Positions 2,566 through 10,993 of a DNA stretch of 14,590 bases are shown piece by piece. Position numbers and translations under genes: made by a program. Position 1 is the first letter of the stretch. Every line of letters starts with the position of its first letter. This DNA comes from a virus. Its lineage: Duplodnaviria > Heunggongvirae > Uroviricota > Caudoviricetes. The stretch is from the IMG/VR virus record IMGVR_UViG_2585427790_000008, one strand, 5' to 3'. The notes beneath the pieces were generated by a model. That model ran no database searches. It was not told the origin of the DNA and was given only the letters and a program-made list of their open reading frames with translations.

Positions 2566-4620
2566 TTACGCGTTATTCACTTCCACCACGATACTGTCAA
2601 TCAGTACCGGGTAAGTCGCATTTTTAGTGATATCGGTCACGCGCAACTTGTCTGCCGTAAACGTGCCGACCGGAGACTGCGACAGCATGAATGGTGTCCC
2701 GTCCTTACCATCAATGACCGGCGTCACCTCAATACTGTTGTTACCGGCAAAACGGAAGCCCAGCGTATGCCATTCGTTATTAAATGCGCCGAATGACCCC
2801 AGCTTCGTGTTCTGCGCCGTGTTTCCTTTGTGATACATCACGTTAAGGTCTGTGGCATCGCTCTGTACGTAGAACGATGCCAGCAGGTTATGACCGGCAT
2901 TTCCTTCCAGAGTAACCCCTTGCGGCAGGGCAGAAACCGGCCAGTACAGCGCCAGTGCGTACTGATTAGCCGTAAGCGCGCCATCGAGTTTAAAACGACA
3001 ACTGACAAGACCACCTTTACCCAGCAGGTCCGCACCATTACCAGCATCATGCTCAAGGTACCAGGGGGCTCTTCCTGTTTCCTTGGTCAGTTTCATTGCC
3101 TTACCCCCGCTGGCTCCGGCATCATCCACGATTTGAGCCTTGCCACCTCCGGCAGCCCAACCCTGTGGTGTCAACCGTCCTTCAGACTCAGATGCCCGGT
3201 AAGCAAATAGCGTACTCATCGTCGTGGTGTCTGCGGGTGGCGTGGACGGTTTTGATGGTGTATCAGGTGACGGCTTCTCATCCGGTGGTGTCACGGTCTG
3301 CCCGCGCATCAGTTCAGCCGTGCGCCCTGCATGGAGCATAATAGCTGAGGCCAGACGGTCTGAAATGACGCCCCTGCGTGCCCATGAGCTGAAATGGCTG
3401 TCACGCTGTGTCGAAACAAAACTGCCCTGGGTTCGGGATGCTGCACCGTAATACCCGACAGCCACAATATCCGGGTCTTCCGCCGGAGCATTCGTTGGCG
3501 TGCTCTGTCCATTCTCATCCGTCAGGAACGGTACAAAGAAAATTTTCTGTGCTTCCTTGCCTTTGTAGCCACCGTATACTGCCTCATATTTATCGGTGCC
3601 AGCGTTTTTCCAGTAATACGTGGTATCACCGCAAATCCACGGCACCGTGGTGGCATTTCCACTCACGCACTGCGCAGCAAGCGGAGCCAGGTCAGTTCTG
3701 AACTGCTGAACCATGGCCGTGAATAAACTATTATGCTGCTGGCTTCCTGAGGCAAGGTCTGCCTCTCCCTGCATCCAGACCACAGCCAGAAGTTTGTTTT
3801 TCGGGTTTTTCGCCAGCGCGACTTTGGTGCGGCTTACCAGGTCCTGATACAGAGGTTTACCGGCCCCCCAGCGTGAAGAATCAGCGGAAGCACCGCTGGC
3901 CTCACTGAATGAGCCGTCGGCTCCAGTGGTGAATGCTGACCCGCCACGACAACAGGGCACCAGAAGTATCCCGGCATTCTGTGGGATATAGGGAAGCAGT
4001 TTTTTGGCAATATGCAACCCCTGACCGACAGTCCCGTACTGGCCTTTTGCCAGATCAGCTTTCGGGTGGTTTATCCCGCTCATATCCTGAACATCATGCA
4101 GGCAGTGGTCTGCCGGAATGATGTCGTTGTATGTACACGACGTACCGTTGGGCGTTACCGTACTGCGGCGTGCCAGTTGCTTAATGCGTGGGTCCGGGCG
4201 GTCAAACGAATCCGGTAACGGCAGCCCCTCGCCGTAGGCCATGCCATTTGACTGACCCGCGAGAATGACAACAAAGTAATATTCCGGCTCTGAACTGCTG
4301 CCATTCGTGCTACCGGAAGGCCCGGCGTTATCCGGTGCATTCCAGTCGGAGGGCGTGAGCGTTCCGGCCACGTCAGATGTGATTGGAATGATGCCAGTCA
4401 CGCCTGAACTGGTGATTTCTGCACTGGGATTACCGGATACCGGCATTACCCATAATGGCTCTTTCGTGCTGAAGCGGATCACGCAGTCTGCGAAGGTGAT
4501 CCCCCCTTTATTACCCGAAGGGCGGAAAGGGCTTTCAATAAATGCCACCGTGCCACCGGCAACCTTGACTGAAAACTCTCCGGGCATGGCGGAGAGCATT
4601 TTCCACTTGGAGTCTGACAT
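2566..4620 (-). CDS. SGNH/SASA-family sialate O-acetylesterase-like protein (prophage NanS-p-like), 684 aa
   Basis: GQSN catalytic-serine motif (VVILAGQSNGMAYGEG) and downstream WMQGEAD motif typical of SASA esterases; Ser/Thr/Pro-rich linkers; long C-terminal beta-rich region. Confidence 0.7.
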   Translation of the reverse strand: MSDSKWKMLSAMPGEFSVKVAGGTVAFIESPFRPSGNKGGITFADCVIRFSTKEPLWVMPVSGNPSAEITSSGVTGIIPITSDVAGTLTPSDWNAPDNAGPSGSTNGSSSEPEYYFVVILAGQSNGMAYGEGLPLPDSFDRPDPRIKQLARRSTVTPNGTSCTYNDIIPADHCLHDVQDMSGINHPKADLAKGQYGTVGQGLHIAKKLLPYIPQNAGILLVPCCRGGSAFTTGADGSFSEASGASADSSRWGAGKPLYQDLVSRTKVALAKNPKNKLLAVVWMQGEADLASGSQQHNSLFTAMVQQFRTDLAPLAAQCVSGNATTVPWICGDTTYYWKNAGTDKYEAVYGGYKGKEAQKIFFVPFLTDENGQSTPTNAPAEDPDIVAVGYYGAASRTQGSFVSTQRDSHFSSWARRGVISDRLASAIMLHAGRTAELMRGQTVTPPDEKPSPDTPSKPSTPPADTTTMSTLFAYRASESEGRLTPQGWAAGGGKAQIVDDAGASGGKAMKLTKETGRAPWYLEHDAGNGADLLGKGGLVSCRFKLDGALTANQYALALYWPVSALPQGVTLEGNAGHNLLASFYVQSDATDLNVMYHKGNTAQNTKLGSFGAFNNEWHTLGFRFAGNNSIEVTPVIDGKDGTPFMLSQSPVGTFTADKLRVTDITKNATYPVLIDSIVVEVNNA

Positions 4621-4705
4621 CGTCTTTTCTGCCTGTTTCTGAATTAAACAGAGTCAGAATAGCGACCGCTGAAAAATATGTGTTTTGCGGAAATTCAAAA
4701 AAGCG

Positions 4706-5277
4706 TCACGGTACTTTTGGTGACGGAGCTGGTGAGGCAGGAAAATAACGATAAAGGGTGGAAAGGCCAATATCAAATATCAGTGCGATTTGTTTACGGG
4801 ACTCGCCATTAGCCAGCAAACGGGCGATTTGCTCCCGCTCTTTCTCTGTCAGTTTCTGAGGTCTGCCGCCATGACGCCCCTGAGCACGGGCAGCAGCAAG
4901 ACCCGCGCGTGTACGTTCAATAATGAGTTCCCGCTCCATTTCCGCCAGCGCGCCCATTATATGGAAAAGAAACGTCCCATGGGAGTGGATGTATCAATAT
5001 TGTCCGTAATGCTGCGGAAGTTAACGCCGCGTTGCCGGAGTTCTTCTGTTAAAAGGACAAGGTGCTGCATACTGCGTCCAAGGCGATCCAGTTTCCAGAC
5101 CAGCAGGGTATCCCCTGGCCGGAGTCGCTTTAATGCGCGTTTAAGTCCGGGACGCTCCCTTGTCTTACCGCTTATTCTGTCTTCGAAAAACAGCTCACAT
5201 CCTGCACATTCCAGCGCATTTCTTTGTAGCGCCGTATTCTGGTCATTTGTTGACACCCTGATATACCCAATCAGCAT
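4706..5277 (-). pseudogene. gin: Gin/Pin/Hin-family serine DNA invertase split by a -1 frameshift
   Basis: N-terminal ORF MLIGYIRVSTNDQ...PMGRFFSI* and C-terminal ORF MGALAEMERELIIERT...STLYRY match Mu Gin either side of ...MGRFFFHVMGALAEMERE. One T is missing from a T-run (+ strand A4 at 4955-4958). Confidence 0.8.
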
Positions 5278-5342
5278 ACGATTTCCTTATTATAAAAAGC
5301 CGGAATTGTCGCATGAGGAATAAAACAGAGTTAATCCTGGCT

Positions 5343-5368
5343 TTCCTGAAAACCTCGGTTTACGGGAA
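5343..5368. other. gix/hix-like 26-bp recombination site TTCCTGAAAACC-TC-GGTTTACGGGAA (invertase-proximal)
   Basis: Imperfect 12-bp dyad half-sites around a 2-bp core, resembling Mu gix and Salmonella hix; sits at the outer edge of the inverted repeat. Confidence 0.6.
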
Positions 5369-5481
5369 ACGGTAAACAGGGCGGCGAATGCCCTGCCATC
5401 GGACGGCACCGCCGTTGCCGCGAACAGGCTGGCAAATGCCCACACAATTAATGGTGTTCCCTTTGACGGGACGCAGGATAT
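5355..5481. repeat. Inverted-repeat copy (proximal), ~127 bp, imperfect, paired with 6547..6673
   Basis: The + strand 5355-5481 aligns by eye with the reverse complement of 6547-6673. Both encode [26 protein letters not shown]...[12 protein letters not shown]. Confidence 0.8.
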
Positions 5482-5707
5482 CACTATCTCATCAGGAACA
5501 GTAACCGCCATAAGACTGGGGTCGGTGACCGCACATATGCCCGGAACATGGGAAAGCTGGGATCTGAATCTGGGGGGCGGCAATGTTCTTACCGGAATTA
5601 AAGTACAGGATGTCGGTAAGAATACGGCAGATAACGTCGGCGGCGTGTATTACCGGCCGTTGCAGTATCTGTTAAATGGAGCATGGGTGACGGCTGCAAG
5701 TATATAA
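5356..5707 (+). CDS. Promoterless alternative tail-fibre C-terminal cassette (Sv'-like), silent in the present orientation
   Basis: Frame open from the crossover site to TAA at 5705-5707. Starts with the same 26 residues as the active fibre C-terminus, then diverges (...[21 protein letters not shown]...YRPLQYLLNGAWVTAASI*). Confidence 0.6.
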
Positions 5708-5715
5708 TGATATTC

Positions 5716-5740
5716 AGAAGGCCTTCCGGCCTTCTTTATT
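5716..5740 (+). terminator. Hairpin AGAAGGCC-TTCC-GGCCTTCT followed by TTTATT, between the convergent cassette and assembly-gene stops
   Basis: 8-bp perfect stem with a T-rich tail on the + strand, located between the stop at 5705-5707 and the minus-strand stop at 5739-5741. Confidence 0.4.
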
Positions 5741-6260
5741 ACTGTGGCTGCTCAGGCCATTTAATGGCGTTAAATTCAGCTTCTGTTTTAATGGCGGGGA
5801 GTTCCATTTTTTTTACCTGACTGATGTATGCCATCCATTGGGTAAGTGCTGCTCTGTCTTCATCGCTGATGGTGCCCAGTTGTAGCTCCGTTCTCCAGTC
5901 ATTAATTTTTTCATATGCCTGATTAAGATATGACTGGCGCATTGCTTCCAGTTTTCTTGCGTAGTTAACCGGAATACGGGAGATTATGCCATTATCAAAC
6001 TTCCAGTTTCCTGAAATATCCGTGCCTTCAGGGAGTTCATCGACCTCAACCACAGAAAACCCCGCAGGATACAGCGCCGAGGCGTCCTGTGATATTGAGC
6101 AGATAACGCCGCTGTCAGGTGTTATGCAAAGTTTATATTTTTTGGTGAATAATGGCAGGGATTCGTAGAAATCCTTACCATCTTCACTCTGGAAATACTG
6201 AACATTATTACCATATGGCATATTTTCAGGATAATAACGGGTTGTATTTTTTAGTTCCAT
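5739..6260 (-). CDS. Tail-fibre assembly chaperone (Mu U / Tfa-like), 173 aa
   Basis: C-terminal region ...ISGNWKFDNGII...LQLGTISDEDRAALTQWMAYISQVK...WPEQPQ resembles Mu U (...LGIISDENKQKLTEWMLYAQKV...FPEQPE); lies immediately downstream of the tail-fibre gene. Confidence 0.8.
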   Translation of the reverse strand: MELKNTTRYYPENMPYGNNVQYFQSEDGKDFYESLPLFTKKYKLCITPDSGVICSISQDASALYPAGFSVVEVDELPEGTDISGNWKFDNGIISRIPVNYARKLEAMRQSYLNQAYEKINDWRTELQLGTISDEDRAALTQWMAYISQVKKMELPAIKTEAEFNAIKWPEQPQ

Positions 6261-6311
6261 AAAATCCTCCTGGAAATAAATCTGTTTTAAAATATATTAT
6301 TTACTGACTAT

Positions 6312-7202
6312 TTATAACTGAGATACCGTAATCCATGTACCTCCGACTAATTTTTGCAGGGGTCTGAATGCTATAAAATCGTTTGAAGCATCAACTTTAC
6401 TGTCAATCTGCAGGCCTGCCATAACATTACCGTACGCAGAGTAATATGCCCCACCGTACATTACCTGCCTGTTCTCTGCTCCCAGCCTGATATCCTGGAT
6501 ATATCGGGAATCCGCATCCTGCTGTGTTATACCAGAAGTGATGTTTATGTCCTGCGTCCCGTCAAAGGGAACCCCATTAATATTTCTTGGGGTGGCGAGT
6601 CTATTCGCGGCAACGGCGGTGCCGTCCGATGGCAGAGCATTCGCCGCCCTGTTTACCGTTTCCCGTAAACCGACGTTATCGATAAAAGCCCCTTTATCCG
6701 GAATGTCTGCGCCGTTCTGCTCCCTGCGCAGGTAACGGTTATCACCTTCGCTTTTGCTGTAAACATCCAGATTATTACGGGCGGTTCCCTTATTCTCCAG
6801 GTCGGCGAGATTCTGATCCTTCGCCAGGGCATTAACGTCAGCGGGACCAAGACTGTTTTTTGTGGCAAGCGTCCCCAGACCAAGATAACCACGGGCCAGA
6901 CGCTGGGCCTCCGCACCGGCATCAGCAATTTCTTTCAGGTTATTTTTCCGGGAAAAGGCATTCGCAGCGATAATGGCTTTAATGGACAGCGTAAGCTGGT
7001 TTAACTGCGCCTTATCCGGCTGAATACTGGCTTCAGCCAGAATATTCAGCAGTTCGGCCTGGAGAATATTCAGCCAGTCCTGACCAATCCAGCTGATACC
7101 TTTTTGTCCGTCACCTTCGGTAAACCAGGTGGTGGTATTACTCTGCGCTGGTGCCAGCGCAGGCATATTCGCCACGCCGGAATTATTATCAACATGAAAC
7201 AT
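6312..7202 (-). CDS. Tail-fibre protein (Mu S-like), 296 aa, with its C-terminal third inside the invertible segment
   Basis: N-terminus [27 protein letters not shown] is typical of Mu/P2-type fibres; start overlaps the upstream stop (TAATG coupling). Confidence 0.8.
6547..6673. repeat. Inverted-repeat copy (distal), within the tail-fibre coding sequence
   Basis: Reverse complement matches 5355-5481 apart from a ~22-bp divergent patch and scattered mismatches. Confidence 0.8.
6661..6686. other. gix/hix-like 26-bp recombination site (distal); reverse complement reads TTATCGATAACG-TC-GGTTTACGGGAA
   Basis: Shares the right half-site and the TC core with the proximal site; the left half-site resembles hixR-type TTATCAAAAACC. 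Confidence 0.55.
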
Positions 7203-7762
7203 TAAATAGTCTCCTCTTCATGGCTGTTTGCATACACGTAAATAAACGTCTGCCATGCAGGCTTATAACGGTTCAGAATACATTCCAGCGCACCGCCTTC
7301 ATAAATACGCAGCGGCGTGAGAATATCATCCAGCACATTCATATTCCGGTAGCCGGTTTCACTGTTAATCGTGACAATACTGACCCACTGTGAATCCGGT
7401 GATGGCTGAATATCTATTTCATAACCAAACTCTGCCGCAAACCGGATATAAAATTCACGGTTAAGAGAGGGTTTCATCCGGTATTTATTCCCGGCATAAC
7501 GCTGACGCTCCTGAATGGTTGCGCCGGTCATATCACATTCCGGTAACCCCAGATAACGCTCCCAGTCTTCCAGCAGCAGACGAGATGAATCAGGAAAACG
7601 TTCTGCCAGCATCTGGTTACCGGTCCAGGAAACACGCTCCGTGGAATGACTGAGGCCCAGGCACAAAGCCGCAAGAACGGATGACGGCCGCTTATCCCAT
7701 GCCAGCCCGTCAGGCAGCAACTGCAACAGGGCACGCTGATGCGGGGTCAGGGTTACAGCCAT
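7202..7762 (-). CDS. Baseplate/tail protein, Mu gp48-like (DUF2313/YmfQ-like), 186 aa
   Basis: Size and position between the J-like baseplate gene and the tail fibre; start overlaps the upstream gene end. Confidence 0.65.
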
Positions 7763-8838
7763 GTGATTTCCCCCACGGTCAGCAACTCTGTATCTCCGGC
7801 CATCACGGACTTCAGCGGGCTGCGAACTTCAAAATCCTCCAGTCCTTTCACCCCTGCAACAGCCCGCCAGAATGATGAAGGCAATACAAGTCCACCCGGC
7901 CGCGATTCGTTATAAAGCAGGTCCGTTAATGCCTGTTTTACGGCAGCCTGATTTTCCGGCGTTTTGGGTACAATCCTGATCTCAAACGCCACCGGCTTAT
8001 TGGTCAGCTTAAACACGCTGATTGTCGGCCCAAGTGGCTGACCAACGGGCTGGCCCGTCGCCGGATCATCATGACTGCGGATATAATCCGCCACCCGCTT
8101 CACATCACCTTCTCCGGGGAAAATGTCAGGGTTATTATCCTGAACAAAAGTCACACCAACACTACCCGCCTCAGGCCATTCAGGCTTACACCATGCCCGC
8201 GTCACGCCCGGTACTTCCCGTGCCCAGCGTTCAAAATCATACTGTGTTCCCCCTGATGGCGGGTTCTGTACCCGGAATACCAGCCTGGACAGCAACTCCG
8301 GCACCGTTTCCACATCCGCACCACCGGTGAGTCCCGTGCCGGTGACCGTGGCTGTCTGGTTGATGCCTGCCTGTGGCGTGATAAAGGACAGGCGGGTTCC
8401 GGTCGGGGTATTTCCAGCGCGCCCCGCACTTTCCGCCTCCACATTAACATTCAGTGTTCCAGCTTTTCCGGTCGCAGAGCCGGTGATGCGGTACACAACA
8501 CCATCGCTTCGCTGAAGGAGTACGCCTTCCGTGATCCCTGCATCCGTGGTCAGCATCAGTTGTACCGGTCCGTCAGCGCGGGAAGCCGGTTTACGGATGA
8601 CACCCCAGAATGCGCAGTGTTTCAGGAGTTCGGCTTCATCAGCTTCTGTCGGAATTATCTGCCGGGAGATCCAGGCCAGATGTTCATGCTCCTGTGCTGA
8701 CAGACCCGCCAGTGCATACGCAATGGCATTCAGGGTGGTTTCATTCACGCCCGGCTGCGAACCGGGCAGGCGCTGGCTGATATCCTGTTGTGTCTGTGTG
8801 ATCAGTTGCGCCAGTGGTAAGGGCTGATAAGGCATCAT
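7753..8838 (-). CDS. Baseplate J-like protein (Mu gp47-like), 361 aa
   Basis: Size and order typical of a baseplate wedge gene; overlapping stop/start coupling with neighbours. Confidence 0.7.
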   Translation of the reverse strand: MMPYQPLPLAQLITQTQQDISQRLPGSQPGVNETTLNAIAYALAGLSAQEHEHLAWISRQIIPTEADEAELLKHCAFWGVIRKPASRADGPVQLMLTTDAGITEGVLLQRSDGVVYRITGSATGKAGTLNVNVEAESAGRAGNTPTGTRLSFITPQAGINQTATVTGTGLTGGADVETVPELLSRLVFRVQNPPSGGTQYDFERWAREVPGVTRAWCKPEWPEAGSVGVTFVQDNNPDIFPGEGDVKRVADYIRSHDDPATGQPVGQPLGPTISVFKLTNKPVAFEIRIVPKTPENQAAVKQALTDLLYNESRPGGLVLPSSFWRAVAGVKGLEDFEVRSPLKSVMAGDTELLTVGEITWL

Positions 8839-9272
8839 TCCCCCTTCATATCAGCATAAAAAATCATCGGATGTCTGCTTCCGTCCGGCAGGGTGATTTT
8901 CACGGAAAGCGAAAGGCGAGCATGCCCCACACGCATGGCATGACATACCACGGATGTGGCAGCACCGCTTTTATGCAGCCACGCCAGCGCTTCATCAGCA
9001 TAGGCCTGTGCACGGCTGACCACGGAGGACAGCGTCTTTTCACGGCTTAACAGCCAGAGACGGGAGCCAACGGGGCGCTCCCGGAAACTGTCTCCCCACC
9101 ATCCCCGACGGTCACGGGTGCCGTCAGGGATTTCATCGGAATCCAGCGCCCGCCTGTCCGTAAACAGTGAAATAATGACCGCAGTCAGCAGGCTGTTATC
9201 CGTCAGAAGATCTGCGCCGTTCAGTTGCAGGGAACCGCAACCCTGATCCCAGACGACAGCAATATCAGCCAT
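8835..9272 (-). CDS. Baseplate protein, Mu gp46 / P2 gpW-like (~145 aa)
   Basis: Start placed at the internal ATG (MADIAVVWDQ...), which overlaps the upstream gene end by 8 nt; the track ORF is extended 71 codons into the upstream gene. Confidence 0.65.
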   Translation of the reverse strand: MADIAVVWDQGCGSLQLNGADLLTDNSLLTAVIISLFTDRRALDSDEIPDGTRDRRGWWGDSFRERPVGSRLWLLSREKTLSSVVSRAQAYADEALAWLHKSGAATSVVCHAMRVGHARLSLSVKITLPDGSRHPMIFYADMKGE

Positions 9273-9879
9273 TCTCTGGTCCTCCCGTTTTGCTGCCTTC
9301 ACCGTTATCGTGATGCACATGACCTGAATAGGTGATCCCGGCAATAACCGCTTCGGACATCGTGAACGTCCCCTGTGATCTTCCGGTGCCGTCAATGGAC
9401 ACATTGCCTTTGACATGCAGGTTCTTATCCACTGTGACATTACCGGTAAAGTGAGCCTCCGGTGTATCCACCTGAACACCTTCATCGGCGTAAATCTCCA
9501 GCGTCTTACAGGTCACAATGATCCGGCCGTTCTTTGTCAGACGTATACGGTGCCCCTCATGGTGATACACGCCGGTATCTCCGGCGGTAAGTCCGGTCGG
9601 GCGACTGCGGCGGTCTTCCACCACAAGCACCACGGCCTGATCCCGTTGTCCGCCAGCACAGGCCAGAAAAACTTCCGCACCAGGCAGGGGGACGCTGATT
9701 TGCCCGTACTGCTGGGGGCGTTCAACGTCATCAAAGGTTTCACCATCCATACCGGTGATTTGCACATTCTGGATTTTCAGCGTGTCCGTTGTGCCGGTCA
9801 GTACACCACGCCCGAACAGCAGACGAACACCCCGCATCACGGGGGCCAGAAGGCGGCTGATGACTTCGTCATTCATCAT
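9265..9879 (-). CDS. Baseplate central spike protein (Mu gp45 / P2 gpV-like), 204 aa
   Basis: Size and order; Gly-rich beta-strand-like C-terminus; coupled to flanking genes. Confidence 0.7.
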   Translation of the reverse strand: MMNDEVISRLLAPVMRGVRLLFGRGVLTGTTDTLKIQNVQITGMDGETFDDVERPQQYGQISVPLPGAEVFLACAGGQRDQAVVLVVEDRRSRPTGLTAGDTGVYHHEGHRIRLTKNGRIIVTCKTLEIYADEGVQVDTPEAHFTGNVTVDKNLHVKGNVSIDGTGRSQGTFTMSEAVIAGITYSGHVHHDNGEGSKTGGPENG

Positions 9880-10993
9880 TGAATTTAATCCCCTGTTTTT
9901 TCATCTGTGCCCGCACGAAGGCGTCCACGTCACCCGCATTTCCGCTTCCGCTGTTTCCCGGCTCTGCCGGAACAATAAAGCCGTCACGGGGTGCCAGAAT
10001 CAGACGGGTGGTTTCGCCGTGATTTGCATCCAGCGAAAACTCCACCTGACAGACAAGAAGATCACGCTCTTCCACTCCGGTGCGGGGAGCCGTGACAGCC
10101 GTCAGCAGGTTGATATCCCACAACTGGCCGTTCTCCCGAAACCAGTGCCGCACGGTGGCTGTCAGGCGCACAGAGCGGGCAACCGCCCGGCGCATTTCCC
10201 GGACAGCCCTCTGGCGTGCACCGTCTGCATCAACAGCATGATCCGCCAGCACAATTTTCGGTCTGTAACGGTGGATGGCACTGTCTGTCACCGTACCAAC
10301 GGGTGCGGCCAGCGTTCCGGCTGTCAGTGCATCCCCGGCATGACCACCACCACGCCCGTGCCCCCGTACACGGTATTCACTGTGGCGCAGACGGTGATCC
10401 ACGTTGTGATCCAAATCCAGCAGATTTTCGCCCAGCGTCAGCGTGTCGCCACGCTGACTGCCGGCCTGAGTGAAAACCAGTTCACCGGCGGCATTACTGG
10501 TTACCAGGACGCCTCTGTGTCTCGCGGCCCGTGTCAGCGCATCTGCCACGGTTTCTGAGTTTTCCAGTGTGAAGGTGGAAAAGTGCCGGGCTGCCGTTGC
10601 ATCATTTACCTGCCAGCGCACCGTGACCCCGAACGGAGCACACAAATCTGAAGCAATGTGCTCCAGCGTGCGGTTCCTCCACTGGCTGCCCGGATGAATG
10701 GCTGAACAGTCCACCAGGTCACCGGTTTTATCCCGTCCGCTGAGCGTGATCTGAAAACGCGTGGCGCTGATGCGCTGCCGGACCTGATCCAGCCAGCCAG
10801 TGATCACAGGCTGACCGTCAATGCGCAATTCCAGAGACTGACCGGCACGGACGGATGACGGAAGGCGTACACCGGGCATCATTACCCCCAGTTCAAAGGA
10901 GCCCGCCAGATGTTCAAGAGAGCGACGAACACTCACCGTCAGCCAGCCGGAAAAAATCTCACCGCCCAGATACAGTTCAACCCTGCTGCTCAC
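9869..10993 (-). CDS. Baseplate hub/tail protein (Mu P/gp44, P2 gpD-like), 374 aa, GTG start
   Basis: Size and order; GTG at 10991-10993 preceded by GGAGGTGA; first gene of the retained tail module. Confidence 0.7.

Follow-up and report, generated by a model that had tools for sequence, protein, structure and literature searches.

A probable, compact G-segment-type tail-fibre switch with a single assembly gene in an Sp18-like viral sequence

Invertible tail-fibre segments are the textbook form of host-range hedging by temperate phages. In the C segment of P1, flipped by Cin, inverted repeats of ~0.6 kb lie inside the crossover sites and code for shared fibre sequence; the Min system of p15B has three or more crossover sites and fewer tail-fibre assembly (tfa) genes than tips; and e14, a lambdoid element, has a segment with two stf/tfa sets. 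More generally, phage tail genes count among the established targets of programmed inversion (PMC9881135), and the P segment of e14, 1,797 bp long, is flipped in trans by the invertase of another prophage (PMC12529663). For Sp18 of Escherichia coli O157:H7 Sakai, an invertible host-specificity region with genes differing from those of Mu was stated in 2009 (PMC2669165). Here, we analyze a 14,590-nt stretch of DNA from a virus of the Caudoviricetes (IMG/VR record IMGVR_UViG_2585427790_000008), hereafter the window, in which positions 5343-6685 very probably constitute an invertible host-range switch of the Gin/G-segment type that works like the G segment of Mu. A switch of this kind had been proposed from the letters of the window alone, without database searches (the sequence-only reading).

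In the mechanism that we propose, a Gin-family serine invertase, encoded just outside the segment, would pair two inverted 26-bp gix-like sites, cut at their 2-bp TC core and rotate the 1,315 bp in between. With the fibre-side site located inside the fibre gene, the constant 176-codon 5' part would be joined to either of two tips, one ending in ..WITVSQL (a fibre of 296 amino acids, aa) and the other in ..AWVTAASI (293 aa); and, given that the first ~45 codons of the segment belong to the inverted repeat, the two fibres would be nearly equal over these codons. The tfa gene follows the proximal tip in the same orientation, whereas after a flip it would oppose the fibre gene from behind a hairpin terminator. 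The copy in the window is currently in the tfa-co-oriented state, and to flip, it would require another Pin/Gin-family invertase in trans. The features involved are the following (ORF, open reading frame; HTH, helix-turn-helix).

5357-6671, either strand: invertible segment between the cores, 1,315 bp
5343-5368, plus strand: invertase-side gix-like site, core TC at 5355-5356
6660-6685, minus strand: fibre-side gix-like site, inside the fibre reading frame (..IDNVGLRE..), core TC on the minus strand, equal to GA at 6672-6673 on the plus strand
5355-5496, plus strand: left arm of the inverted repeat, inside the segment, encoding shared fibre sequence
6532-6673, minus strand: right arm of the inverted repeat, pairing with 5355-5496
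6674-7202, minus strand: constant 5' part of the tail-fibre gene (Mu S-like, Sc), residues 1-176 and the first base of codon 177, staying put on inversion
6312-6671, minus strand: expressed variable 3' part (Sv, tfa-proximal, ..WITVSQL) of the ORF 6312-7202, stop codon included
5357-5707, plus strand: silent alternative 3' end (S'v, the tfa-distal 'type D' tip, ..AWVTAASI), frame open from 5336, no start codon before 5525
5739-6260, minus strand: tail-fibre assembly (tfa) gene, 173 aa, with an AGGAGG Shine-Dalgarno sequence of its own, preceded by a 51-nt AT-rich spacer
5716-5735, either strand: GC-rich hairpin (AGAAGGCCTTCCGGCCTTCT), with the tfa stop codon on one side and that of the silent tip on the other
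4706-5277, minus strand: Gin-family serine invertase pseudogene, split into the ORFs 4957-5277 (Resolvase domain) and 4706-4957 (HTH_7)
5124-5184, minus strand: candidate Fis-bound recombinational enhancer, two G-N13-C AT-centred 15-mers at 5170-5184 and 5124-5138

Two orientations in natural genomes and the crossover sites

The evidence of inversion comes from genome-to-genome comparison, in which two genomes of the same clone, FORC_029 and NCCP 13983 (L035 and L036; L numbers are locus labels throughout), are the nearest proxy for both orientations in one culture. The prophages of this pair are inserted at one and the same site, and over 22,702 positions they differ only by an exact inversion of the segment, the breakpoints being confined to 19 nt (TCGGTTTACGGGAAACGGT) that start at the TC core, and both genomes encode an intact invertase (WP_000904914.1). 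Many E. coli records matched the flanks of the query but not its middle, with the total length equal and, when read, with tfa on the opposite strand. When 5357-6671 is flipped in silico, the window becomes colinear with JE86-ST05 at 99.74% over 2,701 nt, and the predicted flipped fibre of 293 aa is 100% identical to the fibre annotated in that genome; there, the entire repeat has switched sides, as predicted for exchange at the outer sites (both arms were laid out for eleven loci). Searches with the window-type and the core-exchange type of junction, outside which lie the combinations IR-A+Sv and IR-B+S'v, yielded genome lists that account for all close relatives: over 256 nt, 10 genomes match the core-exchange junction at 100.0%, and 17 match it at 98.8% or more over its full length, whereas the window-type junction is present in 4.

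A second lineage, ~85% identical to the first and O157/Sp18-like, gives the same picture, the comparison of L009 with L010 narrowing the crossover to the 13 nt TCGGTTTACGGGA. These breakpoint intervals of 19 and 13 nt, whose resolution is limited by the identical sequence of the repeats, place the exchange at the core dinucleotide, as in a precise, conservative inversion. Among the O157-like records, ~50 are tfa-co-oriented and ~150 flipped (counts read from identity bands, given that the other orientation still aligns at 80-90%), and in both lineages the flipped state is the commoner among E. coli genomes. The sequence-only reading had made itself vulnerable to an absence of the inverted orientation from the reads of every population, coupled with an invertase inactive in trans; both orientations do occur in natural genomes, with the exact crossover at the cores that it had predicted. 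FORC_029 and NCCP 13983 are Korean isolates with whole genomes of 5,189,944 and 5,189,943 bp, respectively, and orientation differences between otherwise identical isolates are not to be taken for assembly errors. We also considered the Mu-type inversion confirmed by long reads in CP066032 (PMC9881135) as a confirmation for the window element and rejected it, this being a classical Mu prophage with two tfa genes.

The crossover sites read TTCCTGAAAACC-TC-GGTTTACGGGAA (5343-5368, plus strand) and TTATCGATAACG-TC-GGTTTACGGGAA (6660-6685, minus strand), and both align base for base with gixL and gixR of Mu (TTATCCAAAACC-TC-GGTTTACAGGAA; Mu is L014). A degenerate gix pattern, built from Mu gix together with both window sites, matches with up to three mismatches only these two places in the 14.6-kb window, against 0.00 expected from 200 shuffles. 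The same fibre codons hold the crossover site in Mu S (..IQNLGLQETVNRA..) and in the window fibre. The locus thus has what defines a pair of sites of the Din family (Gin/Hin/Cin/Pin), namely, two inverted 26-bp sequences with an imperfect dyad and an identical 2-bp core, TC in the fibre sense, and, with two sites, it falls short of the three or more that characterize multiple-inversion systems of the p15B Min or shufflon-like type. A repeat search returned arms at 5348-5433/6595-6680 (86 nt, 93%) and 5447-5496/6532-6581 (50 nt, 84%); ungapped, 5355-5496 and 6532-6673 agree at 120 of 142 positions, and the next-longest inverted repeat within 4500-8500 measures 23 nt. The repeat search, the gix pattern and the alignment with Mu all agree with the imperfect inverted repeat and outer 26-bp gix-like sites that the sequence-only reading described, and the common TC core, with GA on the plus strand at the distal site, reads as it said at 5355-5356 and 6672-6673. 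It was also right that the repeats are longer than the 34 bp of Mu and code for shared fibre sequence, but not that this departs from the family, given that the C segment of P1 is built likewise.

The invertase of the window matches the Pfam families Resolvase (E value 2e-36) and HTH_7 (1e-15), and the 190-aa product of its intact alleles shares 74% identity with Gin and has the catalytic motif RVS9TNDQ. An N-terminal resolvase domain, Ser9, a C-terminal HTH and a place next to the segment mark it as a Din-family recombinase, although the copy in the window is frameshifted. Within the gene, the centres of the candidate Fis 15-mers lie at nt 101 and 147, and Mu gin has its only such pair at these same codons, presumably where the enhancer of gin is situated. 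This coincidence of position is suggestive, and only that, of a conserved enhancer in the window invertase gene, in which case inversion would depend on Fis as well. In DLI.5a (NZ_CP103972, 1244345 and 3517880), TOE17 and AST46, a second chromosomal match to the predicted flipped junction exists besides the truncated prophage copy with the frameshifted invertase.

One assembly gene and two fibre tips

The constant fibre part shows 47% identity to residues 1-191 of Mu S, matches the PDB entry 5yvq_A ('Tail fiber protein S') with an E value of 4.9e-51, and is encoded after the Mu gp48-like and Baseplate_J genes. In the expressed tip, homology to Mu S covers the last ~66 aa and falls on the part of Mu S that binds Tfa, its tip (residues 435-502 of 5yvq_A). 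The current fibre of 296 aa and the in-silico flipped fibre of 293 aa have residues 1-177 in common, and both occur as annotated proteins of genomes, so that the constant 5' part with alternative 3' ends that typifies the Mu G segment is present here. The variable tracts run from TPRN to the end (93 aa) and, in the alternative, from NAHT (90 aa); the swap of a tip of ~94 residues for one of 91, as put forward from the sequence alone, stands, with each count one too high.

The tip that shares the orientation of tfa is specific to the lineage (between lineages, 29-99% identity), whereas the tfa-distal tip belongs to one family in every lineage, with the common motif ..VQDxGKxxADNxGGVYYRPxQ.., and is open over about 118-128 codons in all six of the lineages compared. 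Its identity is 69-92% among the five lineages other than that of the window, and the window tip reaches only 41-43% to these, with the motif kept. The distal tip is related to the SfMu S', P1 and P2 H tips, one P1 fibre tip being the best phage match of the silent tip of the window at 52% identity, and its protein sequence in the window is identical to the end of the expressed fibre of JE86-ST05. The two tips presumably differ in receptor specificity. Decay of the silent cassette, by which the sequence-only reading had also been prepared to fall, is not what we see: the window has an intact cassette, which other genomes express as their fibre tip. In two relatives, however, it is frameshifted or mosaic. 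At 1043-2924 of the AST46 locus (L003), the tips are mosaics of each other, in the manner of gene conversion, and are frameshifted; at ~1040-1400 of the FORC_043 locus (L011), the silent cassette is frameshifted despite an intact invertase. Annotation pipelines call the silent cassette, and even the expressed fibre, a 'hypothetical protein' or a partial pseudogene.

The segment contains a single tfa gene. Its product matches Pfam Caudo_TAP (E value 4.8e-19) and Mu U in the PDB (5yvq_B, 6e-16), with sequence identities of 32% for Mu U' and 28% for Mu U. The 12 E. coli relatives read all have one tfa as well, whereas Mu and the classical Mu prophage have two; the paired sets Sv-U and S'v-U' of a strict Mu G segment are, accordingly, absent. 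Both consequences drawn in the sequence-only reading hold: 5739-6260 is the only Caudo_TAP/tfa gene of the segment, and in flipped relatives, tfa is read on the opposite strand, convergent to the fibre gene. The GC-rich hairpin at 5716-5735 is likely a bidirectional terminator, and an equivalent hairpin with a T-tract lies 3' of tfa in other lineages. In all lineages, tfa is preceded by an untranslated, AT-rich spacer of about 50-85 nt and by a strong Shine-Dalgarno sequence of its own, compared with a gap of 2 nt between S and U in Mu; nothing promoter-like is conserved across lineages in the spacer upstream of tfa or in the invertase-side flank.

According to the summary of North et al. 2019 in PMC9608196, Mu-type fibres require Tfa, which stays bound to the fibre tip; in Mu, Tfa is kept by the virion and has a share in recognising the receptor (PMC9608196). 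Among the loci compared here, the N-terminal domain of Tfa is 72-94% identical across lineages whereas the neighbouring tip is 29-99% identical, and we therefore rejected co-variation of Tfa with the neighbouring tip, the sign of a dedicated chaperone: Tfa is nearly constant whichever tip precedes it. This constancy despite changes of tip argues for a generalist chaperone, and our guess is that the one Tfa serves as such, made in the flipped state from some promoter or supplied by another prophage. It is also conceivable, if doubtful, that the flip changes both the tip and the production of its chaperone, with one state displaying the lineage-specific tip capped by Tfa, and the other the 'type D' tip with tfa untranscribed, folding without a dedicated chaperone or borrowing that of another prophage. 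If true, this would be a two-layer host-range switch and would provide a natural tip of the Mu/P2 type that needs no Tfa of its own. The question bears on current work on Tfa: can one flipping chaperone gene serve both fibres, or does one of the tips manage without?

Alternative readings of the locus

Several points weigh against a G-segment-type switch at 5343-6685. One is that the genome counts are inflated and confounded by clonal relatedness. Another lies in the invertase gene of the window, where the A-run at 4965-4968 has 4 bases compared with 5 in intact alleles, a 1-nt deletion. The frameshifted allele is present also in DLI.5a, TOE17 and AST46, with the label 'frameshifted' in RefSeq, and the intact gene is found in FORC_043, NCCP 13983, JE86-ST05 and others; being common to three other genomes, the frameshift is inherited and not a read error. 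Consequently, no activity encoded in cis is expected, and this copy would flip only with an invertase in trans, so the earlier account of the switch survives in its structure but not with respect to the window's own invertase. The element might, then, be a frozen relic, with the invertase dead, the ..WITVSQL tip locked on and the silent cassette heading for decay, and we give this possibility only slightly less than an even chance. Apart from the shared deletion, it gains from the truncated or mosaic state of the prophage copy in DLI.5a, TOE17 and AST46, and from silent cassettes that are frameshifted in FORC_043 and mosaic in AST46. The window itself, however, retains an intact silent cassette, coding for the very protein that JE86-ST05 expresses as its tip, together with two intact crossover sites and, unlike DLI.5a and TOE17, full YmfQ and baseplate J genes. 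Furthermore, the PinQ invertase of one prophage flips the e14 segment of another (PMC12529663), and, because Pin/Gin-family invertases act in trans between prophages, the segment is not necessarily frozen by the frameshift; that DLI.5a, TOE17 and AST46 each have the predicted flipped junction a second time would likewise count against a frozen state.

A further point against the switch is a crossover in NCCP 13905 (L001, NZ_CM167690; 3741-5092) at the inner end of the repeat instead of the gix core. There, the partner switch falls inside a 24-nt identical patch (window ~5457-5480/6548-6571, coding for VPFDGTQD), and each copy of the repeat has kept its own side, as a homologous crossover would leave it. 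Hence, not every rearrangement at this locus is made by the invertase, and RecA-type homologous recombination between the 142-bp inverted repeats might have produced the two orientations in general, with no site-specific exchange at the gix-like sites. This is highly improbable, given that such crossovers would be expected to spread along the repeat, whereas three independent comparisons put the breakpoint within 13-19 nt beginning at the TC core, all other flipped relatives have the whole repeat swapped, and 17 genomes match the core-exchange junction. An inner-end crossover within GTTCCCTTTGACGGGACGCAGGA as the general mechanism was likewise rejected, the gix half-site match being poor by eye and 17 genomes plus two pairs mapping to the outer cores; the NCCP 13905 arrangement is probably a one-off homologous crossover within the repeat and not a product of the invertase. 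The remaining points concern tfa. For its expression in the flipped state, we detected no sigma70-like promoter above chance in the spacer or the invertase-side flank (by consensus scan) or in the repeat (by eye), and the distal tip has its homologues among tips served by a dedicated Tfa in Mu, P1 and P2, so the flipped phage might make poorly assembled fibres. Taken further, the flip could be an ON/OFF switch, in which only the tfa-co-oriented state assembles fibres and flipped particles are fibre-defective: the flipped tfa gene is convergent to the fibre gene, behind the terminator, and Mu-type fibres need the Tfa retained on their tip (PMC9608196). Such a function seems quite unlikely when the distal tip is open, with its motif kept, in 6/6 lineages, when most genomes of both lineages are in the flipped state, and when several tips also go with a single tfa in a Citrobacter prophage and in ENT90, an isolated Erwinia phage. 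On balance, we favor a switch of the Gin/G-segment type that alternates two tips.

Lineage, neighbouring genes and known switches

On the minus strand, the window encodes, in order, Baseplate_J (7753-8838), a Mu gp48-like/YmfQ protein (7202-7762), the 296-aa fibre (6312-7202) and the 173-aa Caudo_TAP protein Tfa (5739-6260). After the start-less plus-strand frame that ends at 5707, the minus strand continues with the split serine recombinase (4957-5277/4706-4957), a DUF6645/SASA esterase gene (2566-4620) and com/mom. Mu-like prophages of E. coli DLI.5a and TOE17 match the region at 99.9% identity, a related stretch is present in 237 of 5,426 complete E. coli genomes, O157:H7 among these, and the O157 genomes match at about 85% DNA identity; by these sequence comparisons, the window is an Sp18-like, Mu-like E. 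coli prophage of a sister lineage of Sp18. Between the window and NCCP 13905 (window 6547-10223), identity is 86.7% to the right of the segment and 99.5% to its left, such that the switch region is a mosaic boundary between prophage lineages.

Several neighbouring features deserve mention. The gene at 2566-4620 (minus strand), between the invertase and com/mom, is an ORF of 684 aa that combines a sialate O-acetylesterase (SASA) domain with DUF6645 at the C-terminus; all relatives read have kept it, DUF1378 and DUF826 genes follow, and Mu has no gene in that place. From its domains, the protein could be a surface-glycan-modifying or tail-associated enzyme. At 5291-5488 (minus strand), RefSeq has WP_071995513.1, a 'hypothetical protein' of 65 aa whose frame runs antisense to the invertase-side repeat and stops 13 nt short of the start codon of the invertase; the ORF is probably spurious, lying as it does opposite coding sequence of the fibre. 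In CP55_Sichuan (L007, 1849-1968), a 120-nt remnant between the fibre stop codon and tfa codes for the last residues of another tip (..LINGSWRTAGSA*) and is a scar of recombinational tip replacement in which tfa was left in place.

Taken together, these findings support the view that the window switch is a compact variant of a well-known mechanism and that its earlier interpretation was largely right. A literature search found no published account of sites, crossover point or single-tfa layout in the Sp18 family, and the anatomy reported here appears to be undescribed, from the sites and the crossover point to the lone tfa that flips and the tfa-distal tip whose identity is constant. What emerges is a minimal switch, made up of two sites, a single chaperone gene and, beyond the shared repeat, two tips of about 75 residues, and a layout so minimal and well delimited could be useful for engineering switchable receptor-binding tips. 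A scan for the constant fibre part, with one genome per species, gave 18 loci, among which only that of Citrobacter braakii ATCC 51113 (L015) has an invertase, so this survey of architectures rests mainly on E. coli genomes.

Among the closest known systems is the Gin-driven G segment of Mu, together with those of D108, SfMu and the Mu prophage of E. coli FDAARGOS_1059, in which the order is the same (gp47, gp48, S, tfa, silent cassette, invertase, com/mom). The likeness to Mu extends to homologous sites at the same fibre codons, an invertase 74% identical to Gin, a constant fibre part 47% identical to that of S and a Tfa homologous to U/U'. The differences are of scale and content: 1.3 kb of segment compared with about 3 kb in Mu (PMC3575834), variable parts of ~119 codons compared with ~330, one tfa compared with U and U' back to back, inverted repeats of ~140 bp reaching inward from the sites compared with 34 bp, and the additional DUF6645/SASA esterase gene between the invertase and com/mom. 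The C segment of P1 switches tail-fibre 3' ends as the window does but with two tfa genes (U, U'), and P1 is not a Mu-like transposable phage; e14/Pin (PinE, PinQ) is a fibre switch of similar size in a defective prophage. The Mu-like prophage of Citrobacter braakii (L015, 6819-9223) has three inverted gix-like sites, two silent cassettes, one tfa and an adjoining Gin-like invertase, and Erwinia phage ENT90 (L034, 5468-7265) is similarly laid out, with three gix-like sites, two silent cassettes, a single tfa and a Gin-like invertase next to them. In both, as in the window, tfa genes are fewer than tips, and the single tfa can oppose the expressed fibre, but there are three or more sites where the window has two. 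Sp18 of O157:H7 Sakai and its relatives share the architecture of the window, with an invertase, a silent tip, a single tfa and the fibre, and it is in the tips themselves and in the frameshifted invertase that the window departs from the Sp18 lineage.

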